Made by a program: the position numbers and the translations under genes. Shown piece after piece: positions 27,126-43,743 of a stretch of 64,000 bases of DNA. Where the stretch lies: the NCBI GenBank assembly GCA_963703315.1, contig OY969811.1:4480001-4544000 (forward strand), read 5' to 3'. The notes under the pieces were generated by a model, which saw only the letters and a program-made list of their open reading frames with translations, was not told the origin of the DNA and did no database searches. This stretch comes from an uncultured cyanobacterium (GTDB lineage: Bacteria; Cyanobacteriota; Cyanobacteriia; Pseudanabaenales; Pseudanabaenaceae). Numbering within the stretch: the stretch's first letter is position 1; every line of letters begins with the position of its first letter.

Positions 27126-28079
27126 CTAGCTAAGTGCCAATAGTTCAGGATCTTGGAACAGCGCCGTACTCAGGTAACGTTCGCCAAAACTAGGTTGAAT
27201 CATCACGATCATTTTACCTGCATTCTCTGGACGTTTAGCAATTTGGATTGCGGCATAAAGCGCTGCGCCACTAGAAATTCCTGAAAGCAAGCCTTCTTCT
27301 CTAGCTAGTCTGCGTCCGTAGATGATCGCCTGTTCATCGGTGACAGGAATAACTTCATCAATCAATTCCGTTTTCAAAACTTCAGGCACAAATCCCGCAC
27401 CGATACCTTGAATTTTGTGAGGACCTGGGCGACTACCCGCTAATACTTGACTGTTGGCTGGTTCGACAGCGATCGCCTTAAACTCTGGCTTGCGTGCTTT
27501 AATTACTTCCGCAACCCCTGTAATCGTACCGCCAGTTCCCACACCCGAAATTAAGAAATCAACCTGTCCATCGGTATCTTCCCAAATCTCTTCGGCTGTA
27601 GTTTTACGATGAATAGAAGGATTAGAAGGATTACGAAACTGTTGCAGCATATAGGCATCAGGAGTACTTTCGGTAATTTCCTTAGCGCGACGGATTGCCC
27701 CCCCCATGCCTTCGCTACCTGTAGTTAGTTCCAGTTCGGCTCCATAGGCGCGTAACATCGATCGCCTCTCAATGCTCATCGTTTCAGGCATAGTCAGGAT
27801 CAATCGATATCCCTTAGCCGCAGCGACCATCGCCAAAGCAATGCCTGTATTGCCCGAAGTTGGCTCTACCAAAATCGTTTTATTCGGTGCAATTAAGCCC
27901 TGATCCTCTGCTTCTTGGATCATGTTTACGCCGATGCGATCTTTAACAGATGCGGCAGGATTCATGCTTTCCAGTTTGACGATAATTCTTGCCACACACC
28001 CTTCAGCCTTAGGAATGCGTTGCAATTCAACTAGGGGCGTACGACCGACTAATTCTGTAATATTATTGGCAATTTTCAT
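27126..28079 (-). CDS. cysK: Cysteine synthase A
   Basis: [11 protein letters not shown] (PLP lysine), PTSGNTG, GVGTGGT, HKIQGIG. Confidence 0.97.
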
Positions 28080-28286
28080 AGATAAAAGCTTAAATGATTG
28101 CGGGTAAATGAGCTTGTAGTCAACTTTAGAGCATTTTTGATGTCTTGGAAAATTAGCGATCGCCACTTTTATGCCCCAAAAGCTACACACACTAACTCTT
28201 TTCGGCTTTAATAGGGATATTGCGATCGCAAAAAATTTTCACAACATCATCACAAACTTATTAATTAACCATTAAGTAACTTAATT

Positions 28287-28694
28287 ATGGCTGCTACTTT
28301 AAAAGATTTTTTAGAAGAATGTCACACTCTCGGCTTAGTCCGCCTGATCGTCACCAGTGATGCGGGTGTGCTGGAAGCAAGGGTAAATATCGAGAAGCTA
28401 TTTTACGCGGAACTCCCCAAGGGCAAGTATGCGAATATGCATTCCGAACACATCGAGTTTCACCTAAACATGGACAAAATTACCGATGTCCGCTTTGAAA
28501 CCGCCGAAGCCAAACGCGGCAATTTCACCACCTACGCCGTCCGTTTCCTCGATGCCAATGACAAGCCCCAAATGAGTGCTTTCCTACAATGGGGTAAACC
28601 AGGGGAATATGCTGAAGGTCAAGTCGAAGCATGGGCTGCCCTCAAAGACAAGTACGGCGAAACTTGGAAGCCTGAGCCTGTTGAGAGTATATAA
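28287..28694 (+). CDS. ChuX/HutX-like putative haem-binding protein
   Basis: LGLVRLIV, GKYANM, EFHL motifs recalled from cyanobacterial HutX-like proteins. Confidence 0.6.
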   Translation: MAATLKDFLEECHTLGLVRLIVTSDAGVLEARVNIEKLFYAELPKGKYANMHSEHIEFHLNMDKITDVRFETAEAKRGNFTTYAVRFLDANDKPQMSAFLQWGKPGEYAEGQVEAWAALKDKYGETWKPEPVESI

Positions 28695-28741
28695 ATATTT
28701 TTGAGATGATTGGTAAAAATACCCAGAGCTATTAAATTCTC

Positions 28742-30043
28742 ATGAAAATACTAAGGGAAATAAGTCGTGGTGGTTTTGGTCGAGTTGAGCTAGTTGAATT
28801 AGATACAAGTAGTATTGTTGCTAGAAAAGTATTTGATCCTGTTCCTAGTATTTTAGACGCATCTGAACTACCAAAGTTGAAAAAGCGATTTCAAAGAGAA
28901 GTCAAAGTCCAAAAGTCACTAAGTAGTGATTATTTTATGTCAGTTCTTGATGCTGATCTTGATGCTGAAACCCCTTGGTTTACTATGCCACTTGCAGATC
29001 GAAACCTTTCGGAAGAACTAGAGGAATCTCGTAAAAATGGTAATATCCCTCTAGAAGCATTGTCAGACATTCTAAATGCGCTAGAAGAACTTCATTCACT
29101 CGGCTATGTTCATCGCGATCTTAAGCCTCAAAACATCCTTTTTCATGAAAATCGTTGGAAGTTATCAGATTTTGGTTTAGTACTTCCTGTTTCAGGTGCT
29201 ACTACCAAATTGACATCTATTGATTCATCTTGGGGAACTATGGGCTACTGTGCTCCAGAACAGGCTGAAGACTTTCGTAATGCTACACCCAGCGTAGATA
29301 TTTATGCTTTTGGGTGCATACTACATGATCTATTTGCAGGATTTCCTCGTGTACCTTATCAACGTTATACAATACAACATCCTGTAGGCATGATAATTGA
29401 AAAATGTACAGAGATAGAACCCAAAAAGCGATTTAAAAATATTACTTCACTACGCGGTACACTTCTCAAGCTATTATCAGAATCGCAAAGTCTTACTCCT
29501 AGCCCTAGTGCTACAGAATGGGAAGGAAAACTGCAAAATCTATCTAATTGGAATATTCAACAATTAGAAGATTTTGCAAGATTTATGAAATCAACTCAAG
29601 ATGAATCTGATTTGTGGGTTGTATGTCGGGCAATTGATGAAGAAGTTTTGCGTACTCTCTGCTCAATAGATAGAGAACTTTGGCAATTAATAGCTCTAGG
29701 ATATTGTGATTGGTCACATGGCTCATTTAACTTCGACTACTGCGATGTGATTATCAGGAGATTGGAAGTGATTTTTGAGTTAGGCAATCTTGATGTCAAA
29801 TCATCTGCTGCTATAGCAAGTGCCACTTTAGGGTGGTCTCATCATCGCTGGTTTGTCATGGGAAAAGTTCTATTTATGCTGGGTGCAAATTTAGATAATT
29901 TGGTAGCACAGCGAATTGCAATAGAAATAAGTGTCGAAGAAGTTTACAAACAATTTATTTCTTGTGCAGAGTTTCTCAAACGAAGTGTCAATGATTACCA
30001 CCCTCAAATTGCTGAAGTTTTGATTGAGTATCAAAAAAAATAG
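28742..30043 (+). CDS. Soluble Hanks-type Ser/Thr protein kinase with unknown helical C-terminal domain
   Basis: RGGFGRV, ARK, HRDLKPQN, SDFG, GTMGYCAPEQ, DIYAFG; no TM segment seen. Confidence 0.9.
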   Translation: MKILREISRGGFGRVELVELDTSSIVARKVFDPVPSILDASELPKLKKRFQREVKVQKSLSSDYFMSVLDADLDAETPWFTMPLADRNLSEELEESRKNGNIPLEALSDILNALEELHSLGYVHRDLKPQNILFHENRWKLSDFGLVLPVSGATTKLTSIDSSWGTMGYCAPEQAEDFRNATPSVDIYAFGCILHDLFAGFPRVPYQRYTIQHPVGMIIEKCTEIEPKKRFKNITSLRGTLLKLLSESQSLTPSPSATEWEGKLQNLSNWNIQQLEDFARFMKSTQDESDLWVVCRAIDEEVLRTLCSIDRELWQLIALGYCDWSHGSFNFDYCDVIIRRLEVIFELGNLDVKSSAAIASATLGWSHHRWFVMGKVLFMLGANLDNLVAQRIAIEISVEEVYKQFISCAEFLKRSVNDYHPQIAEVLIEYQKK

Positions 30044-30102
30044 TTGTCTTCTAGTTGCATTTCAGTAAAACATCTTAAATCCTTAAAAGATTAAGATACC
30101 AA

Positions 30103-30219
30103 TTTGATTTTTGTGGAGTAGCGATCATGATGTTTTGGGTGTTGAGGAGGCGATCTCTGTTTGATTTTCATGAAGTGGCGATCGCGATTTTGGGTGTTGA
30201 GGGGGCGATCGCTGTTTGA
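30103..30219 (+). repeat. HIP1-punctuated cassette-junction repeat R1
   Basis: TTTGATTTTTGTGGAGTA-GCGATCAT-GATGTTTTGGGTGTTGAGGAG-GCGATCTC-TGTTTGATTTTCATGAAGTG-GCGATCGC-GATTTTGGGTGTTGAGGGG-GCGATCGC-TGTTTGA. Confidence 0.9.
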
Positions 30220-30237
30220 ATATTGTAAAATCAAATA

Positions 30238-30471
30238 ATGGGTAAGAAAGAAAAACTACTTGAACTCCTAAAAAACAGTCCCAACAATGTGACGTTTGGC
30301 GATATTCGTAAACTTTTAGAGCTAGAAGGTTTTGACTTGGATAGAATTACAGGTAGTCATCATATTTTCAAAAGAGATGAAGTAGTTCTAGTCATCCCAG
30401 TCCACAACAACCGAGTCAAGTCTGTATATGTTAAAAGAGTTGTAGAACTTATTGAAGGAGAACAATCATGA
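30238..30471 (+). CDS. hicA: HicA family toxin
   Basis: 77 aa, RITGSHHIF, IPVH; ATGA overlap with hicB. Confidence 0.88.
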   Translation: MGKKEKLLELLKNSPNNVTFGDIRKLLELEGFDLDRITGSHHIFKRDEVVLVIPVHNNRVKSVYVKRVVELIEGEQS

Positions 30472-30695
30472 AATATCCAATAGTGATTTATCCATGTGAA
30501 GAAGGTGGTTTTGTAGCTGAAATTCCTGCTTTAAAAGGATGTTTAGCTCAAGGTGAAACCCTAGAAGAAACCTTGCAAGAGTTAATTACAGTAAGAACTT
30601 TGTGGCTAGAGACAGCCCAAAAGCATGGTCAAAAACTTCCAGATGAAAGTAAGGCGATCGCTAGAGTAAAAGCATTAAGTGCGATCGCTGTTTGA
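30468..30695 (+). CDS. hicB: HicB family antitoxin (short form)
   Basis: EEGGFVAEIPALKGCLAQGETLEE; last codons AIAV* are supplied by the junction repeat. Confidence 0.88.
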   Translation: MKYPIVIYPCEEGGFVAEIPALKGCLAQGETLEETLQELITVRTLWLETAQKHGQKLPDESKAIARVKALSAIAV

Positions 30696-30742
30696 TTTTT
30701 GTGAAGTAGCGATCGCGATTTTGGGTGTTGAGGGGGCGGGCT
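30681..30742 (+). repeat. HIP1-punctuated cassette-junction repeat R2
   Basis: GCGATCGC-TGTTTGATTTTTGTGAAGTA-GCGATCGC-GATTTTGGGTGTTGAGGGG-GCG. Confidence 0.9.
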
Positions 30743-30804
30743 GTGTTAACAAAGTGACTCAATTGTTATAATCATTTCTACAACATGATTAAGTTCTAAT
30801 CCTA

Positions 30805-31020
30805 ATGTCAATAACCCTAGAAGAAAGAGTCGCAATCCTAGAAGCTGAAATATCCCTGATTAAGAACAAAGTGGAAAGTCCAACTGTCACAGTAAAACCT
30901 TGGTGGGAGCAAATCACGGGAACATTTGCTGACAGCCCAGACTATGACAAAGCCATGCAACTAGGCAAAAAATACCGTGAGTCATTGCGTAAGACATCAA
31001 CAAAGTCCCGCAAAAAATAG
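30805..31020 (+). CDS. Putative antitoxin partner of VapC
   Basis: 71 aa, LEERVAILE...PWWEQITGTF; stop abuts the PIN-domain toxin start. Confidence 0.7.
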   Translation: MSITLEERVAILEAEISLIKNKVESPTVTVKPWWEQITGTFADSPDYDKAMQLGKKYRESLRKTSTKSRKK

Positions 31021-31341
31021 ATGTACATACTCGATACAGACCATCTCAGCGTATTAGATCGTGGTGGGACTACTGCTCAGCGTCTTCTTACTCGATTAGC
31101 AAAAGTCAATCCTAATCAAGTCTCAGCAACCATCATCAGCTACGAAGAACAGACAAGAGGGTGGTTAAGCCACATTTCCAAAGCACGCAATCTTGAAGCG
31201 CAAGTTGAAATTTACAAACAACTTAAAAGACAAATTAATAATTACTGCACTATTCCAATAATTGATTTTGATATAGAAGCCGCAAATGAATTCCAACGAA
31301 TCAGAAAGTTATACCCTCGCCTCGGCACAATGGACTTAAAA

Positions 31342-33057
31342 CCCACATTCCGCTCGTAATGGAAGAAAAAAAACAATTACGAAACAGGAGCAGGGAGCAA
31401 ATAGTAGCGTTGGCAGGAGGGAGAAAAGAAATTCAAAATGTGAATCCGAAGAGGAGACAAATTAACAACTTGAGTGAGTCCCTGAAAAGAAACTAAATGA
31501 ACCGCCATAAAACATTGAAAAATCCAACGCAAAGTTGGCGAATTAGTGGGTTTACCCAATTGATTAGGAATAGTATCTTGAGCGATGGCTAAGGCAAGTC
31601 TGAGTTGACGTTGGGCTAAATTATAAACGAGCAAGCACAGTGCCATAATCATGCCCAAAGCCTCAATGCGTTTAGCAGACTTGAGAAAAACACTCGAAGT
31701 AAAAAACAAAGGATCTTTGAGGAAACGAAAACCACGCTCAGTGCTCTGCTGAGCCTTGTATTCCCGTAAAGCATCATCAGCCGTGAATTGTAAGGAATCA
31801 AGAATATTCGTGGCTAAAATAAACCTGCCACAACGCTGTTGCTGAGCCAAGATTTCTGAGTCTATAGGAATCACCGTTGCAGTAATCCGATAACTAATGC
31901 TGGTGGGTATAGCATCAGGTTGTGGCTTACCCCGTTTCGCATAATGTGGTTTTTCTACTGCCTGAATATGGTCGAGTTGATGCCATTTCATCTTGGTTGA
32001 TAATTTTTCAGCAGCAGCGATCGCGTCAGCAGCACAGGCAAAATCTTGTCCCGCCAAAGTGTGTAAATCTTGATGACATTTTTGCTGGACTTGCTCAAGC
32101 TTTTTGTCTAACTTTTTGATGTCTGATTTACGTCTTGCTTGGCTATCAACTAAAATCCATCTCTGTCTTACACCACCATACTCACTCACAGTTTCGGCTG
32201 TCCTGTATCCCTTAAATTTACTTTCTTGTAGGTCAGTTGTGCTTGACACTAAGTCACTTGCAGTTTTGATGCTTAATGGCACTCGGGTTAGCCATTTTAG
32301 TCCTGTCATTGCTACCAGATTTTCTTCACTGTATAGCGCTGCATCGCCTACGCATATTCCCTCAAATGTCCACTGGGTTTTGAATTCTTGTAATAGTCCT
32401 GCAAATCTTGCTTTGTCGGCTTGATTTCCACTTACCACTTCCATCATTACGGGAATGTCTCCATCTCCTACACAGATCAGGTTCATCATAAATTGCTTCA
32501 GGTCGGGGCGATGGTCGCGTGAATATCCGTGTGTGATTTCGATACTCCCTTCTTCCTCTCTGCCATATTCCCCATCTACGTGAAATGAGGTTGAGTCTAT
32601 ATGTCCTGTTTCTACCTTGACATCGTATTTCGCTACTGCTTTCAGGCTGATTCCTAAAAATGTCTCACTCAGTCCTGCTTCATGTAAGTCATCCAGTACT
32701 TTACCGATGCGGTCATCATTGATTTGTTCGGCTGTTATCCCTTCCCCCAATAAGTGCTCGGTTGGTTTTCCTTCAAAGAATTTACCAAACATATACAGGG
32801 GTGCTGATACAAATCCTAATCCATTCAGGAGCATGGCTTTGACAATTACTCCTGCACTTACTTTTTCTCTTGAGCTTCTCCCGATTATCGTGTTTATTTC
32901 TTCCACGATTCCCATCTCGTCGATGATTCCTGCCACGATCCCTAGATGGTCTAGGTTCGTTACTTTCATCTCTGTATTAATACCTGCCTCCTCTTTTTGC
33001 TCTTGTGCCTTACCTTTAGTTAATTATTTTACCCTTCCATTACGAGCGGAATGTGGG
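31342..33057 (-). mobile_element. IS1634-family insertion sequence, 1716 bp
   Basis: Perfect 24-bp terminal inverted repeats CCCACATTCCGCTCGTAATGGAAG (31342-31365 / 33034-33057) and 6-bp target duplication TTAAAA (31336-31341 / 33058-33063). Confidence 0.95.
31377..32969 (-). CDS. IS1634-family DDE transposase
   Basis: LDHLGIVAG, HIDSTSF, GYSRDHRPDLKQ, GRFILATN, ERGFRFLKDP. Confidence 0.93.
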   Translation of the reverse strand: MKVTNLDHLGIVAGIIDEMGIVEEINTIIGRSSREKVSAGVIVKAMLLNGLGFVSAPLYMFGKFFEGKPTEHLLGEGITAEQINDDRIGKVLDDLHEAGLSETFLGISLKAVAKYDVKVETGHIDSTSFHVDGEYGREEEGSIEITHGYSRDHRPDLKQFMMNLICVGDGDIPVMMEVVSGNQADKARFAGLLQEFKTQWTFEGICVGDAALYSEENLVAMTGLKWLTRVPLSIKTASDLVSSTTDLQESKFKGYRTAETVSEYGGVRQRWILVDSQARRKSDIKKLDKKLEQVQQKCHQDLHTLAGQDFACAADAIAAAEKLSTKMKWHQLDHIQAVEKPHYAKRGKPQPDAIPTSISYRITATVIPIDSEILAQQQRCGRFILATNILDSLQFTADDALREYKAQQSTERGFRFLKDPLFFTSSVFLKSAKRIEALGMIMALCLLVYNLAQRQLRLALAIAQDTIPNQLGKPTNSPTLRWIFQCFMAVHLVSFQGLTQVVNLSPLRIHILNFFSPSCQRYYLLPAPVS

Positions 33058-33168
33058 TTAAAAATTGCAGCGATCGCCATTGTTAACAATGCGATCGTGT
33101 TAACCAGAAACACTTCTGATTTTGGGCAAATTGCAAACTTACAAATAGAAGATTGGACACAGTAAATT

Positions 33169-33200
33169 GATCGCTGTTTGATTTTTGTGGAATGGCGAGC
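33169..33200 (+). repeat. HIP1-punctuated cassette-junction repeat R3
   Basis: GATCGC-TGTTTGATTTTTGTGGAATG-GCGAGC, 3 nt after the vapC stop. Confidence 0.85.
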
Positions 33201-33277
33201 ATTTGGCAAACGGCGTGCTAAAAGTTGCTTATTGGTTATAAACTCATTGGCTATAATAATTTGTATACGCTAAAAGC

Positions 33278-33553
33278 ATGAAATTTGAATGGGACGCAAA
33301 TAAACAACAACAAAATCAACAAAAGCATAAGATTTCCTTTGAAGAAGCAACAACCGTTTGGACTGATCCATTAGCTTTAATTGCTCCTGATCCAACTCAT
33401 TCAATAACAGAACAAAGAGAATGGATTATTGGACAATCATACGAAAGTCGTATATTAGTAGTTGTTTTCACAATGAGAGAAGAGATAATTAGAATTATCA
33501 GTGTTAGACCTGCCAATAAATCGGAAAGAAAAAAGTATGTCGAATCAACCTGA
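33278..33553 (+). CDS. brnT: BrnT family toxin
   Basis: MKFEWDANK...N..KHKISFEEA...EQR...IG...VVFT.R...IRIISVR.A...ER..Y. Confidence 0.9.
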   Translation: MKFEWDANKQQQNQQKHKISFEEATTVWTDPLALIAPDPTHSITEQREWIIGQSYESRILVVVFTMREEIIRIISVRPANKSERKKYVEST

Positions 33554-33806
33554 ATTTCCTTTTGCTAATGCCAGAAGAATTAGTGAATCAGAAGTAATAG
33601 CTGCCGAGCAAGCTATTAAACAACAATTTGGAATTAATCTCACACAGCATAAAGATTCAACTAAAAATGAAACAGAAAATTATCAATCAATTTCTATTCA
33701 GCTAGATCCTAAAATAATTGCTTGGGCAAAAGCTGAAGCTACAAAAAAAGGAGTTAAATATCAAGCAATCATTAATGAAGTACTTCTCAAGGCGATCGCT
33801 TTTTGA
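33537..33806 (+). CDS. brnA: BrnA family antitoxin
   Basis: ISIQLDPKII.W.K...YQAIINEVL; overlaps brnT; ends AIAF* inside the junction repeat. Confidence 0.85.
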   Translation: MSNQPEFPFANARRISESEVIAAEQAIKQQFGINLTQHKDSTKNETENYQSISIQLDPKIIAWAKAEATKKGVKYQAIINEVLLKAIAF

Positions 33807-33825
33807 TTTTGATGAAGGGGCGATC
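33792..33825 (+). repeat. HIP1-punctuated cassette-junction repeat R4
   Basis: GCGATCGC-TTTTTGATTTTGATGAAGGG-GCGATC. Confidence 0.8.
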
Positions 33826-33884
33826 TCTTTACCTCATGTTAGGATTTAACAAAGTAAATATACTTGTACACAATTAATTCTCTT

Positions 33885-34106
33885 ATGAACACCCTAGTAG
33901 AGATTAAAACAGCGATCGCTAGATTGTCTGATGACGAAACATCAGCATTATTATCGTGGCTACAAGAACGCTCAGAAGATGACTGGGATAAACAAATAAA
34001 GAAAGACTCTGAGCTGGGTAAATTAGACAAAATTATCCAACGAACAAAAGCCCATATCGCCGCCAATCGCGTCAAGAAACTGGATGAAGTCATTAACAAC
34101 TCCTGA
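33885..34106 (+). CDS. Putative antitoxin
   Basis: EIKTAIARL...WDKQIKKD..GKLD; overlaps the downstream RelE-like toxin. Confidence 0.65.
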   Translation: MNTLVEIKTAIARLSDDETSALLSWLQERSEDDWDKQIKKDSELGKLDKIIQRTKAHIAANRVKKLDEVINNS

Positions 34107-34347
34107 TTTTTGGGAGGCTTACGTAGCTTTGCCGCCATCCATCAAAGCCCAAGCCAAAAAAACTTATCAAATCTGGCTAAGCGATCGCTTTTATCCATCC
34201 CTACATTTCAAAAAAGTCAATCAAAATCTATGGTCTATTCGCATCAATAGAGAATATCGAGCTTTAGCCTTAAAAGAAGGAGATGATTATTACTGGTTTT
34301 GGATCGGTTTGCATGACGAATACGACAGATTAATTGATGAAAATTAA
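34084..34347 (+). CDS. RelE/ParE-superfamily toxin
   Basis: TTPDFWEAY..LP, YPSLHFKKV, WSIRINREYRAL, WFWIGLHDEYD. Confidence 0.8.
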   Translation: MKSLTTPDFWEAYVALPPSIKAQAKKTYQIWLSDRFYPSLHFKKVNQNLWSIRINREYRALALKEGDDYYWFWIGLHDEYDRLIDEN

Positions 34348-34348
34348 T

Positions 34349-34428
34349 ATTGAGGAGGCGATCGCTGTTTGATTTTTGTATGGAGTGGCGATAGTGATTT
34401 TAGGTGTTGAGGTGCGATCGCTGTTTGA
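34349..34428 (+). repeat. HIP1-punctuated cassette-junction repeat R5
   Basis: TTGAGGAG-GCGATCGC-TGTTTGATTTTTGTATGGAGTG-GCGATAGT-GATTTTAGGTGTTGAGGT-GCGATCGC-TGTTTGA. Confidence 0.9.
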
Positions 34429-34446
34429 ATATTGTAAAATCAAATA

Positions 34447-34675
34447 ATAGGGTAAGAAAGAAAAACTACTTGAACTCCTAAAAAACAGTCCCAACAACGT
34501 GACGTTTGGCGATATTCGTAAACTTTTAGAGCTAGAAGGTTTTGACTTGGATAGAATTACAGGTAGTCATCATATTTTCAAAAGAGATGAAGTAGTTCTA
34601 GTCATCCCAGTCCACAACAACCGAGTCAAGTCTGTATATGTTAAAAGAGTCGTAGAACTCATAGAAGGAGAATAA
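34447..34675 (+). pseudogene. hicA: Second hicA copy with destroyed start codon
   Basis: Near-identical to 30238-30471 but AATAATG-GGT has become AATAATAG-GGT (in-frame TAG 34448-34450); only an internal GTG at 34499 remains. Confidence 0.8.
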
Positions 34676-34677
34676 TT

Positions 34678-34905
34678 ATGAGATATCCAATAGTAATTTA
34701 TCCCTGTGAAGAAGGTGGTTTTGTTGCTGAAATTCCAGCTTTAAAAGGATGTTTAGCTCAAGGTGAAACCCTAGAAGAAACTTTGCAAGAGTTAATTACA
34801 GTAAGAACTTTGTGGCTAGAGACAGCCCAAAAGCATGGTCAAAAACTTCCAGATGAAAGTAAGGCGATCGCTAGAGTAAAAGCATTAAGTGCGATCGCTG
34901 TTTGA
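34678..34905 (+). CDS. hicB: HicB family antitoxin, second copy
   Basis: Differs from the 30468-30695 protein only at residue 2 (K to R). Confidence 0.88.
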   Translation: MRYPIVIYPCEEGGFVAEIPALKGCLAQGETLEETLQELITVRTLWLETAQKHGQKLPDESKAIARVKALSAIAV

Positions 34906-35011
34906 TTTTTGTGAAGTAGCGATCGCGATGCTTTTTGTTGTTGATGGGGCGATCGTGCTATTTGGGTTGAGATTAGGGGCGATCGCTAGTTGATTTTGGT
35001 GGAGTGGCGAT
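34891..35011 (+). repeat. HIP1-punctuated cassette-junction repeat R6
   Basis: Five GCGAT(CGC) cores separated by linkers such as TGTTTGATTTTTGTGAAGTA and TAGTTGATTTTGGTGGAGTG. Confidence 0.9.
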
Positions 35012-35042
35012 TATTATGTTTATTGTAGTTAGGTAGACCCAA

Positions 35043-35300
35043 ATGCCAACAGTTTTATATGTAAAGGGCTGGCGATTTTTCTTTTATTCAGATGAAGGAA
35101 ACGAGCCAATTCATATTCATGTTCAGAAAGGAGACAGCGAATGTAAATATTGGCTAGACATTGATCTATACGAAATCCGTGAGGCTTACTCCTATGGAAT
35201 GTCATCACGCGATACGAGAGAAGTTAAGAAAATAATTTTACAAAACTTTGATGAAATAGTAGAAGAATGGCAAGCATTCAGGAGTCAGCAAAATGGATAA
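35043..35300 (+). CDS. DUF4160 family protein (predicted TA component)
   Basis: MPTV...GWRFFFYSDE..EPIHIHV...CKYWL. Confidence 0.8.
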   Translation: MPTVLYVKGWRFFFYSDEGNEPIHIHVQKGDSECKYWLDIDLYEIREAYSYGMSSRDTREVKKIILQNFDEIVEEWQAFRSQQNG

Positions 35301-35538
35301 GCAATACAACGTATCGAATATAGAATTTAGTGGCGAATGGATAATTCTATCGGTTAATGAAGAAACCTATCAAATCCCAATTGTTCAAGCTTCTAAAAAA
35401 CTTGCTCAAGCAACAGATATTGAACGTAAGATGTACCGCATTTCTCCATCAGGTTATGGGATTCATTGGTATGCGATCGATGAAGATTTAACAACTAAAG
35501 GACTTATTAAGTTAGCCACAGTTGCCCAAACAGCTTAA
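35293..35538 (+). CDS. DUF2442 family protein (predicted TA component)
   Basis: L..AT..ER...ISPSGYGIHWYAIDEDL; overlaps the DUF4160 gene. Confidence 0.8.
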   Translation: MDKQYNVSNIEFSGEWIILSVNEETYQIPIVQASKKLAQATDIERKMYRISPSGYGIHWYAIDEDLTTKGLIKLATVAQTA

Positions 35539-35545
35539 ACAATGG

Positions 35546-35578
35546 GCGATCGCTGTTTGATTTTTGTGAAGTAGCGAT
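35546..35578 (+). repeat. HIP1-punctuated cassette-junction repeat R7
   Basis: GCGATCGC-TGTTTGATTTTTGTGAAGTA-GCGAT. Confidence 0.88.
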
Positions 35579-35644
35579 ATTACACCCATTAAATTTGTTT
35601 TTTGCTAGACTACATACCAGATACTCATCACTTTGAGGTTATTT

Positions 35645-35872
35645 ATGAGATCAATAGAGCTACTTACGAAAGAATTATTATCTCTCCCTAGTATTTCTAG
35701 AGCGCTATTAGCAGAAAAACTAGTCGAAAGCCTAGAATTTGACACCGATCCAACTGTTCAGGCAACATGGACAGCCGAAGCAAAAAAAAGACGTGATGCA
35801 GTCCGTGATAGTTCTGTTCAAACAATCGAAGGAGAAGATGCTCTAGCTCAGGTAAGACGGTTACTTGCGTAA
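35645..35872 (+). CDS. Addiction-module antitoxin (TIGR02574-like)
   Basis: LSLP..SRALLAEKLVESL...W.AEAKKR; TAATG overlap with the toxin. Confidence 0.8.
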   Translation: MRSIELLTKELLSLPSISRALLAEKLVESLEFDTDPTVQATWTAEAKKRRDAVRDSSVQTIEGEDALAQVRRLLA

Positions 35873-36162
35873 TGAAGTATGTATTTCATCCCGAAGCACT
35901 TGCTGAATATTCTGATGCAGTTCAATATTATGCTGAACAGAGAACAGAAATTGCCCAAGCATTTATCAATGCAATTGAAGATGCAATTTTTCGGATTAAG
36001 GAATCTCCTAATCGTTACGCCGCAATTGATGAAGATATTCGACGATGCATGACACGAAAATTCCCCTACGGAATCCTCTATACGATTGAGGAAGATTATA
36101 TTCTGATCTTAGCCGTGATGCATTGCAGTCGAGAAGTTGGATATTGGAAAAATAGGAAGTAA
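35872..36162 (+). CDS. ParE/RelE family toxin
   Basis: FHPEALAEY..A..YY, RRC...KFPYGILY, ILAVMH.SR..GYW. Confidence 0.88.
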   Translation: MKYVFHPEALAEYSDAVQYYAEQRTEIAQAFINAIEDAIFRIKESPNRYAAIDEDIRRCMTRKFPYGILYTIEEDYILILAVMHCSREVGYWKNRK

Positions 36163-36163
36163 G

Positions 36164-36173
36164 GCGATCGCTG
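36164..36173 (+). repeat. Minimal junction R8 (single HIP1 plus TG)
   Basis: GCGATCGCTG 1 nt after the parE stop. Confidence 0.5.
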
Positions 36174-36200
36174 ATTACAAAATTTACATTGATATAACCC

Positions 36201-36229
36201 TTCGCATTTAACGTGCCACGTTATATGAT
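36201..36229 (+). promoter_or_regulatory. higBA promoter with palindromic operator
   Basis: TTCGCA-17 nt-TATGAT; the spacer contains the perfect inverted repeat TAACGTG-C-CACGTTA (36209-36223). Confidence 0.6.
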
Positions 36230-36257
36230 ACGAATATAAACTTACTATTCCTTAGTC

Positions 36258-36539
36258 GTGATCCGAAGCTTTAAGGATAAAGAAACTCAAAAAATCTTTG
36301 AGAGACTGCGATCGCGTAAATTGCCATCAGAAATTCAACAAGTAGCCTTACGAAAATTGCGTATGCTAAATCAGTCACCCACTCTTCAAGAACTTCGTAT
36401 TCCACCAGCAAATCGATTAGAACGACTAAGTGGCGATCGTGAAGGTCAATATAGCATTCGGATTAACAATCAATGGCGTATTTGCTTTGAATGGCAAAAT
36501 GATGACGCTTTCAATGTGGAAATTGTTGATTATCATTGA
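36258..36539 (+). CDS. higB: HigB toxin (plasmid maintenance killer family)
   Basis: MIRSFKDKET, PPANRLERLSGDREGQYSIRINNQWRICF, EIVDYH. Confidence 0.93.
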   Translation: MIRSFKDKETQKIFERLRSRKLPSEIQQVALRKLRMLNQSPTLQELRIPPANRLERLSGDREGQYSIRINNQWRICFEWQNDDAFNVEIVDYH

Positions 36540-36548
36540 GGAATCAAA

Positions 36549-36845
36549 ATGAACGAAGATAAACTTAATCCAATTCATCCTGGGGAAGTTCTTTTAGAAG
36601 AATTTCTTAAACCGATGAACTTGAGTCAAAATCAACTAGCGTTAGCTCTTCGAGTTCCCGCCCGACGTATTAACGAAATCATTCACGGTAAACGACGAAT
36701 CACCACAGATACGGCAATTCGCTTAGCATTCTATTTCAATATGTCCCCCAGATTTTGGCTTGGATTACAAATGGATTACGATTTAGATATAGCTGAAGAT
36801 GAAGTTGGAGAAAAACTAAAAATGGAAGTAGCAGTTTTTAGCTAA
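36549..36845 (+). CDS. higA: HigA antitoxin (HTH)
   Basis: PIHPGEVLLEEFL, RINEIIHGKRRIT, FWLGLQ..YDL. Confidence 0.93.
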   Translation: MNEDKLNPIHPGEVLLEEFLKPMNLSQNQLALALRVPARRINEIIHGKRRITTDTAIRLAFYFNMSPRFWLGLQMDYDLDIAEDEVGEKLKMEVAVFS

Positions 36846-36846
36846 A

Positions 36847-36912
36847 GCGATCGCTGTTTGATTTTTTGAAGTGGCGATCGCCCAGCATTGCACTAATTGT
36901 GAGGGCGATCGC
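36847..36912 (+). repeat. HIP1-punctuated cassette-junction repeat R9 (end of array 1)
   Basis: GCGATCGC-TGTTTGATTTTTTGAAGTG-GCGATCGC-23 nt-GCGATCGC. Confidence 0.88.
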
Positions 36913-36934
36913 TTGTGAGAGATAGAACTTGTGA

Positions 36935-39202
<2,268 letters not shown>

Positions 39203-39260
39203 TTAAATGATACATGGCTTAGTTAATCTGATTCGTATCGGTTTTATCCAGAAAATAGCG

Positions 39261-39366
39261 ATCGAGCTTCACCTAAAATATAGACAAAATTACCGATGTT
39301 CGCTTTGAAACCAATTCCACTACCACGCGATCCGCTCCAACGATGCCGATGATAAGCCCCAAATGA
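39261..39366 (+). pseudogene. Decayed internal fragment of the hutX-like gene (copy of 28452-28575)
   Basis: ATCGAGCTTCACCTAAAATATAGACAAAATTACCGATGTTCGCTTTGAAACC...GATAAGCCCCAAATGA aligns by eye to 28452-28575, with a frameshift and an ~18-bp deletion. Confidence 0.85.
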
Positions 39367-39476
39367 TTCTGTAATAAGGTAAGATAACCCACTGAGAGTC
39401 TGTAGGAAATATACTATGTTTTTAAGCTATATTTAAATATTAGATAAGTCTATAAAGAAAATAACCAGTTATATAT

Positions 39477-40736
39477 ATGGTAAAAGCTGTTATGTCCAAT
39501 CTAAAACTTTTTGAGGAAGAAAAAAAGGATTTAACTTTCTTTGAAGAAAAAGAAGATACAGATAGTGATTCTGATGATCTCCAAAAACTATTAGAAGAGA
39601 TTGCCGAAATCCTCGTGACTGGGACTGATTGGACAACAAGAACTTTACTAGATCAACTTGTGAGGGAAAATATTCAATTAAATCCAAGATTTCAAAGACG
39701 TGATGCGTGGAATATCGTACGAAAAAGTAGATTTATAGAATCAATTATTCTTGGATTTCCTATCCCACACATAGTTTTAGCATCTAATCAAAAAGAACGA
39801 GGAAAATTCGTTGTTCTTGATGGTAAGCAACGCCTACTTACGATTCTTCAATTTTACGGTAAAAGCACGGCGACAAAAAATAATAATTTCTCTTTGAGAG
39901 GATTAGAATTCAGGAAAGATCTAGATGGTCTTTCGTATAAAGATTTAGAAAATAATCCAGACTATGCTTCTATAGTTGCACCTCTTGATAATCAGACTAT
40001 TCGCACTATCTTGATCCGAAATTGGCATACTGAATCTTTTCTCTATAAAATCTTTTTACGTCTTAATGTTGAAAGTACGCCTTTATCACCTCAAGAACTT
40101 AGACAGGCACTTCATCCAGGTGATTTTGTCAACTTTTTAGACGATCAATCGGTTGCTAGTCAATCGTTGAGGCGAATTTTTAAGTCAAAAGAGCCTGATT
40201 TTAGGATGAGAGACAATGAATTGCTTATGAGGTTTATGGGATTTCATTATTTCTTACCTGAGTATCGTGGCACATTAAAAGCTTTTCTAGATATGACTTG
40301 TAAAAGGCTTAATGAAGAATGGGAAAATAAAGCAGACGATATTAAGGAAGCCGCTAATCAGTTTGAATACGCTATAGAAGTAACTATTGAGATATTTGGA
40401 GAAAGACATTTCTCCCGTCTTTGGCTAGATAAATCACAAACATATCGCAGTCAATTTAATAGAGCGATTTTAGATGCTATGGTTTTCTATTTTTCTGATC
40501 CTATTATTAGAAATGTAGCAGTAACTAGAAAAGAATCAATAAATACCGCATTCAAGGAACTATGTTCTTCTACTGGAAATGGATTTAGAGAATCTGTCGA
40601 GGGTAATACAAAAAATATTGGTGAAACCTTTACTCGCTTATCTTTATGGGGGAAAACTCTTAGAGATATATTAGATATAGATTTCAATGTACCTGATTTA
40701 ATTGAAAACCGCATAGTCTTCACCAGTTTACATTAG
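39477..40736 (+). CDS. DUF262 (GmrSD N-terminal/ParB-like) domain protein
   Basis: P.FQR..W, FIESI..G.PIP, VLDGKQRL, IFLRLN...PLSPQELR. Confidence 0.85.
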   Translation: MVKAVMSNLKLFEEEKKDLTFFEEKEDTDSDSDDLQKLLEEIAEILVTGTDWTTRTLLDQLVRENIQLNPRFQRRDAWNIVRKSRFIESIILGFPIPHIVLASNQKERGKFVVLDGKQRLLTILQFYGKSTATKNNNFSLRGLEFRKDLDGLSYKDLENNPDYASIVAPLDNQTIRTILIRNWHTESFLYKIFLRLNVESTPLSPQELRQALHPGDFVNFLDDQSVASQSLRRIFKSKEPDFRMRDNELLMRFMGFHYFLPEYRGTLKAFLDMTCKRLNEEWENKADDIKEAANQFEYAIEVTIEIFGERHFSRLWLDKSQTYRSQFNRAILDAMVFYFSDPIIRNVAVTRKESINTAFKELCSSTGNGFRESVEGNTKNIGETFTRLSLWGKTLRDILDIDFNVPDLIENRIVFTSLH

Positions 40737-40750
40737 TTTCTATTTAGAAT

Positions 40751-41344
40751 ATGTCGATTTCAAGAAGGTTTCGTGATTTAGAGAGAGAGCTAAGTAGACT
40801 AAAAAAGCAATTTCTACCTAAAATTAGTCCTACTGGCTCATATTCTGATAGAAAGCTGTCCTTAACTATTGCTTATAGAGTTTTAGCTCATGCTGAGATT
40901 GAATCCTATCTTGAGAATAGAGCTGAGGAAGTAGTTCTCTATGCAAAGAGAAAATGGGATGTTGATGGCAATTCTAGTCGCGCATTGGTTGCTATTGTGG
41001 CTTTTGCAGAAAACAAGCGAACTGCATCTGCGCCATTCTTAAATGATAAAATAAGATTTGCAGTTGATATTTTTCAGACTGCAATCCGAGAAAATCATGG
41101 AATAAAAGAAAAGAATATTCTGAATTTGATGTTGCCAATAGGTATAGATAATAATGATTTAGATACTGTTTTCTTGGCTAATATGAATACGTTTGGAGAA
41201 GATAGAGGTCTTGTAGCGCATTCATCAGCAACACTATATAGAGTAACAAATTTACCAGATCCTGCTACTGAGTTAAATAGAATACAGCAAATTACTAATG
41301 ACCTTAGAAATTTAGATCAGCTAATAAGTGCTTTGATGGAATAA
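40751..41344 (+). CDS. HEPN-domain protein (RiboL-PSP/MAE_28990-like)
   Basis: LAHAEIESYLE helix and Rx4H motif RGLVAH; 14 nt after the DUF262 gene. Confidence 0.75.
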   Translation: MSISRRFRDLERELSRLKKQFLPKISPTGSYSDRKLSLTIAYRVLAHAEIESYLENRAEEVVLYAKRKWDVDGNSSRALVAIVAFAENKRTASAPFLNDKIRFAVDIFQTAIRENHGIKEKNILNLMLPIGIDNNDLDTVFLANMNTFGEDRGLVAHSSATLYRVTNLPDPATELNRIQQITNDLRNLDQLISALME

Positions 41345-41352
41345 AGAATGTA

Positions 41353-41499
41353 GTGATCGCTGTTTGATTTTTGTAGAGAGGTGATCGTGATGTTTTTGGG
41401 TGTTGAGAGGGCGATCACTGTTTCATTTTTGTGGAATGGCGATCGTGATATTGAAGTGTTGAGGGGGCGATCGCTGTTTGATTTTTGATTGGGGCGATC
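41353..41499 (+). repeat. HIP1-punctuated cassette-junction repeat R10 (longest)
   Basis: Six HIP1-like cores with alternating linkers A (TGTTTGATTTTTGTRGARDG) and B (GATNTTTGGGTGTTGAGRGG). Confidence 0.9.
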
Positions 41500-41536
41500 A
41501 TGTTAATCTATAAAATATAAATTAGGGAACAAAGAT

Positions 41537-41728
41537 ATGACTGCTGTAGTACAAGAGCTTCTAAATACCTTTGATAATCTCACATACGCAGAAAGACTAG
41601 ACTTATTATCAGAAATTCTAAGACGAACAGTTGACTTAGAATTTGAACCATTATCTGATGAAGAACTAACATTGAACGCCGAAGACCTGTTTCTAACGTT
41701 GGACGAAGAAGAGTTAGCCGATGAGTAG
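41537..41728 (+). CDS. Putative acidic antitoxin
   Basis: 63 aa, very acidic C-terminus; overlaps the MazF-like toxin. Confidence 0.7.
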   Translation: MTAVVQELLNTFDNLTYAERLDLLSEILRRTVDLEFEPLSDEELTLNAEDLFLTLDEEELADE

Positions 41729-42056
41729 CCCAGAACGTGGAGAAGTTTGGCTAGTCGATCTTGGCTATGTCGCAAAAGTCAGACCATGCTTAGTTATTAG
41801 TATCCCAGCCCTAGACAGCGATCGCGCATTAGTAACCCTAGTTCCACATACAACGAGTTTGCGCGATTGCAGATTTGAAGTAAAAGTCAAAGCTAAATTT
41901 TTGCGAGAAGGCGCATTTGACGTACAAAATCTCATCACAATCCCTCATGCCAAACTTTTACGCAAACTAGGAGAGCTAACATCAGAGCAAATGGAAGACT
42001 TAGAAGATGTCTTACTCGTATGGTTAGGATTTGAATCTGAAAAAGACGAAGACTAA
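41721..42056 (+). CDS. mazF: PemK/MazF family toxin
   Basis: RGEVWLVDLG..AKVRPCLVIS, LVPHTT, KLGEL. Confidence 0.88.
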   Translation: MSSPERGEVWLVDLGYVAKVRPCLVISIPALDSDRALVTLVPHTTSLRDCRFEVKVKAKFLREGAFDVQNLITIPHAKLLRKLGELTSEQMEDLEDVLLVWLGFESEKDED

Positions 42057-42077
42057 GCATAGAAAACTTTGAAAAAG

Positions 42078-42147
42078 GCGATCGCTGTTTGATTTTTGTG
42101 GAGAGGCGAGCGTGATTTTTGGGGTTGAGATGGGCAATCGCTGTTTA
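42078..42147 (+). repeat. HIP1-punctuated cassette-junction repeat R11
   Basis: GCGATCGC-TGTTTGATTTTTGTGGAGAG-GCGAGCGT-GATTTTTGGGGTTGAGATGG-GCAATCGC-TGTTTA. Confidence 0.88.
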
Positions 42148-42166
42148 AACATTGTAAAATCAAGTT

Positions 42167-42341
42167 GTGGGTAAGAAAAAATAAACTACTTGAACTCCTA
42201 AAAAATAGCCCCACGTGACGTTTGCAGATATTCGTAAACTTTTAGAGCTAGAAAGTTTTGACTTGGATAGAATTACAGGCAGTCACCATATTTTCAAAAG
42301 AGATGAAGTAGTTTTCGTCATCCCAGTTCATAACAACCGAG
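42167..42341 (+). pseudogene. hicA: Third hicA copy, frameshifted and truncated, no hicB
   Basis: Aligns to the 30238-30416 region; GTG start, extra base giving an early TAA, small deletion, ends after CATAACAACCGAG. Confidence 0.85.
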
Positions 42342-42535
42342 CAGCAATTCTCATTATGGAAAATTAACGGCGTTGCACACACTCATAATGATCAAGTAAA
42401 AATAGGAAAGGATTTCTGATTTTTGCGTTTGAGGTAAAAAAGTAGTAACCGAATCGAAATCTGCAACATTAATCATCACTAACTCCCTTTTACTTTTATT
42501 GGTAACATAGATTAAGAAATATATTGAAATAACTC

Positions 42536-43743
<1,208 letters not shown>

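Follow-up and report, generated by a model that had tools for sequence, protein, structure and literature searches.

HIP1-bounded repeats at the joints of toxin-antitoxin cassette arrays in an uncultured cyanobacterium

Gene content of the array

A stretch of 64,000 nucleotides from an uncultured cyanobacterium of the family Pseudanabaenaceae (assembly GCA_963703315.1, contig OY969811.1, positions 4,480,001 to 4,544,000), hereafter called the window, carries a series of small toxin-antitoxin (TA) and defence genes, and a repeat built on the octamer HIP1 (highly iterated palindrome 1) stands at the joints between them. An account made from the sequence alone, the sequence-only reading, had described this series as an integron-like array of cassettes, and our follow-up indicated that the same cassettes appear to have changed places at these repeats among related genomes. 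The array spans positions 28742-42367, is flanked by hutX (28287-28694) and dapF (42536-43372), and carries between its repeats nine TA modules of two genes each, together with a hicA remnant and two candidate defence loci. Pfam and PADLOC searches agreed with the sequence-only reading on this inventory, with the vapC gene cut by an insertion sequence (IS) and three antitoxins lacking a Pfam match. The plus strand given for the modules was borne out; icd and the IS transposase, which also lie inside the span, are on the minus strand, so that the array is in fact two sub-arrays on either side of icd. The genes, in order, are:

28742..30043, plus strand: candidate defence gene for a Ser/Thr protein kinase, the first accessory gene past hutX (Pfam Pkinase 5e-30; PADLOC mad6/PD-T4-6/Stk2-like)
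30238..30695, plus strand: hicAB copy 1 (Pfam HicA_toxin, HicB_lk_antitox; hicB stop codon within the repeat)
30805..31359, plus strand: vapB-like gene and 5' piece of the IS-cut vapC (PIN), whose 3' piece resumes at about 33060-33165
31340..33059, minus strand: IS element with a DUF4277 + DDE_Tnp_1 transposase of 530 amino acids (transposase gene 31377-32969; 45-nt terminal inverted repeats; multicopy)
33278..33806, plus strand: brnTA (Pfam BrnT_toxin 3e-29, BrnA_antitoxin; brnA stop codon within the repeat)
33864..34347, plus strand: small gene without family match and ParE-like toxin (Pfam ParE_like 2e-10)
34499..34905, plus strand: hicAB copy 2 (Pfam; 1-nt insertion at the hicA start codon)
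35043..35538, plus strand: DUF4160/DUF2442 pair (Pfam)
35633..36162, plus strand: Unstab_antitox/ParE pair (Pfam)
36258..36845, plus strand: higBA (Pfam HigB-like_toxin 1.6e-23, HTH_3)
36935..39166, minus strand: monomeric isocitrate dehydrogenase, icd (Pfam IDH 1298 bits); divides the array, without a bounding repeat
39477..41344, plus strand: GmrSD_N (NsnA-like) and RiboL-PSP HEPN genes, candidate defence pair (Pfam; PADLOC NsnA)
41537..42056, plus strand: small gene and PemK/MazF toxin (Pfam PemK_toxin 3e-14)
42215..42367, plus strand: truncated third hicA copy (remnant), closing the array on the right before dapF

The Pfam assignments comprise two HicA/HicB pairs, BrnT/BrnA, a ParE-like pair, DUF4160/DUF2442, Unstab_antitox/ParE, HigB/HTH_3 and a PemK/MazF pair, and this cargo of adjacent small genes appears, by family match, to belong to type II TA systems. 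The presumed antitoxin genes at 30805-31020, 33864-34106 and 41537-41728 gave no family match in the Pfam search. The 'vapC' gene is disrupted in the window by the IS, and its intact homologue in a congener (L049:739-1161) matched PIN with 28.8 bits against a cut-off of 23.6. In metagenome run X1 this IS had a depth of 70-220 against about 9, which indicates a multicopy element. The second hicAB copy is 96% identical to the first. Among the defence candidates, the GmrSD_N protein matched PADLOC NsnA over nearly its full length (E 2.4e-64), and the GmrSD_N and HEPN pair adjoins icd in congener G017 too; no such kinase gene was found near icd in eight congeners.

The repeat and its junctions

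In each repeat unit, of about 28 nt, two HIP1 octamers enclose a G/T-rich stretch of 18-22 nt, and units are often tandem. Two unit types alternate: A, which opens with TGTTTGATTTT, and B, which opens with GATTTTGGG and closes with GAGGGG; each junction of the window holds 0.5-2.5 A+B pairs. As had been claimed from the sequence alone, all 11 module junctions bear the repeat, the eighth (R8) only as a bare HIP1, and in 10 of the 11 it begins 0-21 nt past the upstream stop codon or overlaps it; after the kinase gene it begins about 50 nt past the stop. The further claim that the repeat occurs neither elsewhere in the 64-kb window nor between any toxin and its antitoxin was reproduced by a profile search at E<0.01. 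The hutX to kinase, icd to GmrSD_N and hicA remnant to dapF boundaries carry no repeat. The junctions, all on the plus strand, are:

Junction 1, 30095..30237: 2.5 tandem units, 5' end degenerate
Junction 2, 30681..30741: A and B units
Junction 3, 33169..33200: single A unit
Junction 4, 33792..33825: single A unit
Junction 5, 34358..34447: A and B units and the beginning of another A unit
Junction 6, 34891..35012: about 4 units
Junction 7, 35546..35579: single A unit, distal HIP1 ending early after GCGAT
Junction 8 (R8), 36164..36171: bare HIP1
Junction 9, 36847..36912: A unit and a divergent unit, three HIP1 sites
Junction 10, 41353..41502: 2.5 tandem A+B units
Junction 11, 42078..42167: A and B units and a hicAB-type leader

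Bare HIP1 was ruled out as a marker of the array, since it occurs at about 1.8 per kb throughout the genome, with 126 copies in the window alone and 8189 in all 4.57 Mb. In both hicB (ending AIAV) and brnA (ending AIAF) the repeat provides the final four codons and the TGA stop, in the same frame relative to HIP1 (30681-30695 and 33792-33806), and the minus strand of the repeats yields spurious open reading frames (ORFs) of 40-60 amino acids; the provision of stop codons and the generation of spurious ORFs by these repeats are both of consequence for annotation.

When folded, the junctions formed HIP1:HIP1 stems of 8-14 bp with loops of 18-20 nt. Folded as the sense (G/T-rich) strand, the A unit makes a 14-bp hairpin with GAUUUUGGG after it (z about -2), while the antisense strand gives only a 9-bp HIP1:HIP1 stem without a U-tract. 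The sense-strand hairpin, together with the start of the repeat no more than 21 nt from the stop codon in 10/11 window junctions and the lack of any other 3' untranslated region in the cassettes, speaks for a reading in which the repeats are mainly expression elements, that is, terminators or insulators between autoregulated operons or determinants of RNA stability, and in which shuffling is a by-product of their similarity. A scan for consensus terminators, which permits loops of 3-8 nt only and is blind to loops of 20 nt, found none at the repeats, and an Rfam search at E<=0.1 over positions 28000-43000 gave no family match.

Repeat loci across the genome and their link to toxin genes

A genome-wide search with an iterated nhmmer profile (E<=0.01) returned 94 repeat matches in 33 loci, which fall by their neighbours into three groups:

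17 loci, 77 matches: a Pfam toxin- or antitoxin-family gene within 900 nt
8 loci: housekeeping neighbours only
8 loci: ambiguous neighbours (DUF29, Uma2, AAA_14/DUF4143, unknown small ORFs)

The TA loci include arrays at 0.06, 0.44, 1.37, 2.19, 2.25, 3.46, 3.47 and 3.59 Mb, with modules such as DUF5615/DUF433, BrnTA, DUF6883/DUF4926, YoeB, Phd/ParE, MazF, HicA and DUF4160/DUF2442, and at least seven such arrays are present in this genome. Approached from the side of the toxins, five families (ParE, PemK, HicA, BrnT and PIN) gave 84 genome matches, of which 20 have a repeat no more than 600 nt away, compared with 1.6% of random intervals, an enrichment of about 15-fold; the share was highest for BrnT (6/10) and lowest for PIN (2/25), and because the family search overlooked at least the window's own ParE, these toxin counts are lower bounds. 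The expectation of a TA association was thus confirmed by the genome scan, with 77 of the 94 matches in TA loci. Its extension to a genome-wide rule failed, since about three quarters of the toxin matches are not beside this repeat family, and the association between repeat and TA genes is strong but partial.

All 14 multi-match clusters of this genome have their repeats on one strand. Repeat subfamilies are specific to an array or common to a few: one belongs to the window, a second is found in the arrays at 0.44, 2.19 and 2.25 Mb, and a third in those at 1.37 and 4.37 Mb. The co-orientation of modules seen in the window did not carry over to other arrays, where modules can face opposite to the repeats, as do all three in L001 and several in L002; repeats were also found between divergent modules. 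These observations count against the repeats being mainly expression elements, given that genes opposed to the repeats meet only the short antisense stem, and so do the runs of up to 10 tandem units seen among relatives, which exceed what a terminator needs; an effect on expression is moreover compatible with a recombination role. We regard expression as an improbable main function, and the A-unit hairpin could, as modelled, terminate transcription where genes and repeats are co-oriented and not elsewhere.

A second joint family is present in the genome (HIP1-N21-HIP1; 974146, 976144 and 2731748-2746724), with 8 copies at <=8 mismatches, six of them in 2.73-2.75 Mb. It shares with the window repeat the layout of two HIP1 sites about 21 nt apart and likewise flanks accessory or defence cassettes, and differs from it in an unrelated spacer and in not being tandem. 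In the 2.19-Mb array the DUF6883 gene (L002 3055-3374) is broken into two ORFs of 51 and 58 amino acids; it probably represents a frameshifted partner, toxin or antitoxin, of the neighbouring DUF4926 gene.

Cassette order and breakpoints among relatives

A 150-nt piece of this genus-specific repeat matched 48/48 genomes of the genus. Among 251 genomes drawn from the class, the repeat was present in 16/16 congeners and in 0/3 other genera of the family, with weak matches (E 1.6e-5 to 6.4e-4) in 11 further genomes. In eight congeners cysK, hutX and dapF are not near icd; near icd in these genomes, window cassettes are found differently combined and on the opposite side of icd, as higBA+brnTA, higBA+ParE-like+brnTA, GmrSD_N+HEPN, brnTA, or hicAB. 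The blocks of homology to the window begin and end in repeats, running from 36163/36164/36190 to 36880/36881 for higBA, from 33169/33244/33246 to 33810/33825 for brnTA, over 33791-34392 for the ParE-like pair and over 30103-30736 for hicAB.

The breakpoints were then counted genus-wide with a 3.6-kb query containing six cassettes, which gave 102 non-self matches in 39 of the 47 other genomes. The results showed that 131/190 internal block ends are no more than 10 nt away from a repeat, where 10.7% would be expected, and that 88 of the 92 substantial matches span a single cassette. Cassette types were co-oriented with the adjoining repeats in 171/171 cases and the repeat strand was uniform in 34/34 loci elsewhere, both counts being slightly inflated by the inclusion of three duplicate loci. 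After removal of duplicates, 25 direct neighbour pairs were left; they represent 22 distinct pairs, 4 of the 25 repeat an adjacency of the window, and several cassette pairs were seen in both orders. The number of units per joint ranges from 0.5 to 10 among relatives. By these comparisons the same cassettes stand in shuffled order in relatives, with homology breaking within the shared repeats. The sequence-only reading had looked to variable cassette order and to breakpoints at the repeats among relatives, and both were found.

Four public metagenome runs (Logan contigs) were also compared with the array; one contained 89% of the sampled words and the other three 21-34%, and parts of the array without coverage in them carry no weight as evidence. 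Contigs from three public metagenome runs showed alternative joins at repeats. Among these joins, higBA is precisely missing (36173->36870), with a 16-nt A spacer between, in line with the breakpoints expected at the repeats. Elsewhere, the Unstab/ParE pair is joined to the repeat before vapBC through a common 8-nt HIP1 (36165->30683; run X5), DUF2442 is joined to the same repeat through a common 33-nt unit (35545->30681), and the 5' flank of icd leads through a repeat to higBA (39259->42080, 42119->36167), an arrangement found likewise in two congeners. The empty site of the IS was also recovered (31335->33058; run X5). A joint that removes the whole left sub-array (28701->36844) occurred in one contig with a side of 25 nt and is not relied on, and several other contig joints fall within genes or between copies of the repeat, where alignment ambiguity may account for them. 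The anatomy of the array, its association with TA genes, the shuffling across the genus and the breakpoints at repeats are accordingly read from the comparison of assemblies and metagenome contigs.

The icd gene was considered as a repeat-bounded cassette and ruled out, since most of the eight relatives have neither repeat nor HIP1 at its 3' edge. It was present in 11/18 sampled congeners and in 0/12 genomes of other families, and its flanks (past the stop codon, and past about 100 nt upstream) differ in all eight relatives, so that a central-metabolism gene occupies a hypervariable spot.

Cassette edges at nucleotide level

Each cassette follows one plan, with its own conserved leader of 50-100 nt, two genes and no 3' untranslated stretch. 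At the 3' edge the order is stop codon, 0-21 nt, HIP1 and the well-conserved TGTTTGATTTT; the first 19-20 nt of the repeat are much better conserved than the remainder, and the inner unit sequence is variable, is not cassette-specific and does not move with the cassette. The 5' edge is cassette-specific and constant across genomes. The Unstab/ParE pair is preceded by an A unit whose distal HIP1 ends after GCGAT or a degenerate form of that sequence in 13/13 other loci, the ParE-like pair is preceded by GCGATC in 10 loci, hicAB begins 7 nt inside an A unit in 8 loci, and higBA begins directly after a full HIP1 in 7 loci. In 6 of these 7 a full repeat (B unit) precedes higBA, and so the bare HIP1 of R8 in the window looks like a collapse between two HIP1 sites. 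In most joints the distal HIP1 ends early, after GCGAT(C). Arrays in which genes oppose the repeats have identical edge positions, with the stop codon again flush with the edge. By these alignments the frame of the repeat is fixed and the cargo can face either way, each cassette type holding its own orientation.

Recombinases and comparison with known cassette systems

No tyrosine or serine recombinase is encoded within the 64-kb window, in agreement with the sequence-only reading, and none was found within or adjoining any array. In the whole genome, PF00589 matched two loci, neither in the window, and no serine recombinase was found. The sole clear tyrosine recombinase is a 507-aa Xer-like protein with two Phage_integrase-type stretches (L031 529-2052; G000 1754114-1755637), which scored 134 and 130 bits against XerC and XerD cut-offs of 335 and 330. 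Its gene directly adjoins a mazEF pair. A 415-aa ORF (L033 669-2640; G000 ~4366860-4368830) with a TetR domain at its N terminus and a weak resemblance to integrases in its C-terminal part was not accepted as a recombinase, its 26 bits lying under the Pfam cut-off; it abuts brnTA, and the brnT frame beside it extends upstream through variant repeats.

In integrons, the attC sites are imperfect palindromes of 57-141 nt with the cores R'' (RYYYAAC) and R' (GTTRRRY), and cassettes are mostly promoterless, co-oriented and expressed from the promoter Pc. As in integrons and in CALINs (clusters of attC sites lacking integron integrases), the present arrays consist of ordered, small, self-contained cassettes rich in TA and defence genes with one conserved element after each, and their order is shuffled while polarity is kept; the window array itself is co-oriented, TA-rich and has the repeat 3' of each module. 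Unlike integrons, they show no IntI (the best TIGR02249 match in the whole genome had 38 bits against a cut-off of 265) and no attC structure: R''/R' core pairs were found at 0/11 junctions and 5 times per strand in 64 kb, and the HIP1:HIP1 stems with their 18-20 nt loops are not long imperfect attC palindromes. The joint is also tandem and variable in unit number, the cassettes bring their own leaders and take either orientation in other arrays, and the arrays are many and dispersed. The description 'integron-like' therefore holds as an analogy of behaviour and fails for the machinery, and we consider a true integron or CALIN all but dismissed, since two of its defining features are refuted.

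The one Y1_Tnp match in the genome, at 348969, bears on the possibility that the repeat is a small non-autonomous mobile element (similar to miniature inverted-repeat transposable elements or repetitive extragenic palindromes) preferring the 3' ends of TA operons. Such an element would be short and palindrome-bounded, as the units are, and could provide the final residues and stop codon for HicB and BrnA as the repeat does, and small elements of the SDR5 type are reported to insert into HIP1 in Nostocaceae (Elhai 2015, PMC4390886). Against it, neither a target-site duplication nor a terminal inverted repeat beyond HIP1 was found at the junctions inspected, units are tandem and co-oriented within arrays, the Y1 gene is far from every array, and insertion alone leaves the whole-cassette changes of neighbour unexplained, all of which makes a mobile repeat quite improbable.

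Sites of the pdif type are 28 bp long, with inverted XerC and XerD arms round a 6-nt spacer, and alternate in orientation around plasmid modules. The dif modules of Acinetobacter, on which XerC/XerD act in trans, resemble the present arrays in being discrete modules, TA modules of higBA and brnTA type among them, that are shuffled, with short bounding sites and with no module-encoded recombinase. They differ in that the joints described here are chromosomal, all direct, tandem and HIP1-based, that canonical XerC/XerD were not detected in the genome, and that the only dyad in the joint is HIP1, copies of which stand 18-22 nt apart. TA modules are reported to be shuffled in dif systems by recombinases acting in trans (PMC13141974, PMC6449649). 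By analogy with these modules or with integron cassettes, an enzyme acting in trans might cut and rejoin at HIP1, or at a core of HIP1 and TGTTTGATTTT, and move cassettes as discrete units; candidates would be the single Xer-like tyrosine recombinase or a nuclease at the CGATCG core. The edges at fixed HIP1 positions across genomes (Unstab/ParE 13 loci, ParE-like 10, hicAB 8, higBA 7), the early end of the distal HIP1 in most joints, the two junctions with only the 8-nt HIP1 in common, the strict orientation polarity and the better conservation of the first 19-20 nt all favour such an enzyme, and a palindromic site would also permit the unchanged edges of anti-oriented modules. HIP1 has moreover been tied to site-specific recombination, SDR5 inserting between nucleotides 3 and 4 of HIP1 (Elhai 2015, PMC4390886). 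On the other side, no recombinase is linked to any array, the sole clear tyrosine recombinase falls far under the XerC, XerD and IntI cut-offs, the joint lacks inverted binding arms round a spacer of 6-8 nt, the number of units and their inner sequence vary without constraint, and subfamilies follow arrays, as expected of homology-dependent exchange but not needed by a core-site mechanism. We therefore hold a trans-acting recombinase to be a tentative alternative, deserving attention and on balance unlikely.

In Neisseria, intergenic mosaic elements (dRS3/RS repeats) and minimal mobile elements allow cassettes to be exchanged via repeats or flanks by transformation. The likeness lies in arrays of short repeats round variable cassettes, toxin/immunity genes included, and in homologous recombination within a naturally transformable host in which an oligomer linked to uptake or recombination is abundant; the differences are that sequences and phylum are unrelated, that HIP1 itself bounds the units here, and that the present cassettes are mostly type II TA pairs.

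A proposed model of cassette exchange

We propose that cassettes are exchanged by homologous recombination between shared repeats, inside the chromosome as well as following natural transformation, and that HIP1 enhances the process; we give this reading a probability of roughly 0.55. The repeats would act as portable homology, such that recombination between two of them would delete or duplicate a cassette, or excise and re-insert it. An excised circle with one joint could re-enter any joint of the same subfamily, and DNA imported from a relative with two joints could be spliced into any array by one crossover in each flanking repeat; both routes would preserve orientation and scramble order. 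Three or more HIP1 sites per joint would probably increase the rate of recombination or uptake. The predominance of TA modules may follow from the counter-selection of addiction-module loss in a deletion-prone region.

The combination of scrambled order, kept orientation, variable unit number, inner repeats that are not cassette-specific and subfamilies confined to arrays fits homologous recombination, and ComEC, DprA and three C5-methylases are encoded in the genome. In Synechococcus PCC 7002, integration is reported to rise up to 7-fold if the homology arms contain HIP1, and more than 100-fold if it is methylated (Kamoku & Nielsen, bioRxiv 10.1101/2024.09.10.611283), and HIP1 abundance is reported to correlate with DNA-uptake genes (PMC13756078). 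Dependence on RecA, the part played by transformation and the role of HIP1 are what we infer here. Together, these data support the sequence-only reading in its view of the HIP1-containing repeats as recombination sites of a shuffling platform, driven by RecA and natural transformation or by a recombinase in trans, and more tentatively in its suggestion of cassette capture. The repeats act as swap points of cassettes without integron machinery.

Several points weigh against homologous recombination between repeats as the explanation. Part of the breakpoint enrichment is due to anatomy, as BLAST blocks must stop where a shared repeat ends; the related genomes, being species of one genus, are non-independent samples; and 64 of the 84 toxin-family matches lie away from this repeat family. 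The metagenome evidence consists of assembled contigs and not reads, so that some may be wrongly joined at repeats, and rare events or circles would be invisible. Some cassette 5' edges are sharp, at a HIP1 ending early after GCGAT or GCGATC. R8 and one joint of run X5 have only the 8-nt HIP1 in common, less than RecA requires, and modules facing opposite ways in the same repeat frame are not producible by recombination between direct repeats. These features suggest that DNA is broken and joined at HIP1 in the original captures at least, and perhaps in the exchange as well.

Taken further, HIP1 itself might be the crossover site of a phylum-wide, integrase-free cassette system in which a host activity would break and rejoin DNA at the CGATCG core, a possibility that we hold to be doubtful. 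It would account for the edges after GCGAT(C) and for the junctions with 8 nt only, and, HIP1 being palindromic, modules could enter either way round; HIP1 has been linked to site-specific and illegitimate recombination in earlier work (Elhai 2015, PMC4390886; NAR 2018, PMC5861425). If true, G/T-rich HIP1 tandem repeats would be docking arrays for TA, defence and polymorphic-toxin modules in many cyanobacteria, and HIP1 would gain a concrete natural function after 30 years.

Generality and significance

To see the repeat outside the genus, the four best out-of-genus matches, picked by repeat similarity alone, were inspected, and 4/4 showed analogous tandem G/T-rich units between HIP1 sites. 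Two of these loci are arrays of HicAB, ParE, BrnT, Phd/ParE and PIN modules; in the other two (L091 54-2372, L092 217-2874) the ends of Rhs-repeat genes adjoin repeats and are followed by Uma2 or XisH/XisI genes. This suggests that the pattern is general among cyanobacterial families, and HIP1-bounded joints may punctuate polymorphic-toxin tip arrays also.

HIP1 is among the most over-represented oligomers of bacteria, and to our knowledge its function has been open since the 1990s. The arrays provide a natural readout of it, dozens of cassettes having changed places at HIP1-dense joints genus-wide, and, with cassettes of selectable size, the question of its function becomes approachable by ordinary genetics; recent laboratory work connects HIP1 to the efficiency of transformation and recombination (10.1101/2024.09.10.611283, PMC13756078). 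Modular cassette arrays with conserved joints are already known (integrons, dif modules, neisserial arrays), and what is new is the type of joint and that no dedicated recombinase is seen. In the portions of the literature covered, including Elhai 2015 and Scholz et al. 2019 and with supplementary files outside the search, no description of HIP1-bounded TA cassette arrays was found. The arrays thus display integron-like modularity of TA and defence genes without an integron integrase, and they offer an explanation for the pile-up of TA genes in such regions.

Further observations

Cumulative GC skew climbs nearly monotonically along the genome, from a minimum at 330 kb to a maximum at 4550 kb, and as it lacks a two-arm shape, origin and terminus are not readable from it. 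A fragment of hutX lies upstream of icd (39276-39366) and is 81-92% identical to the middle of the intact hutX (28466-28575), 10.8 kb away on the same strand. We take this fragment to be a likely trace of an older rearrangement or import at the locus.

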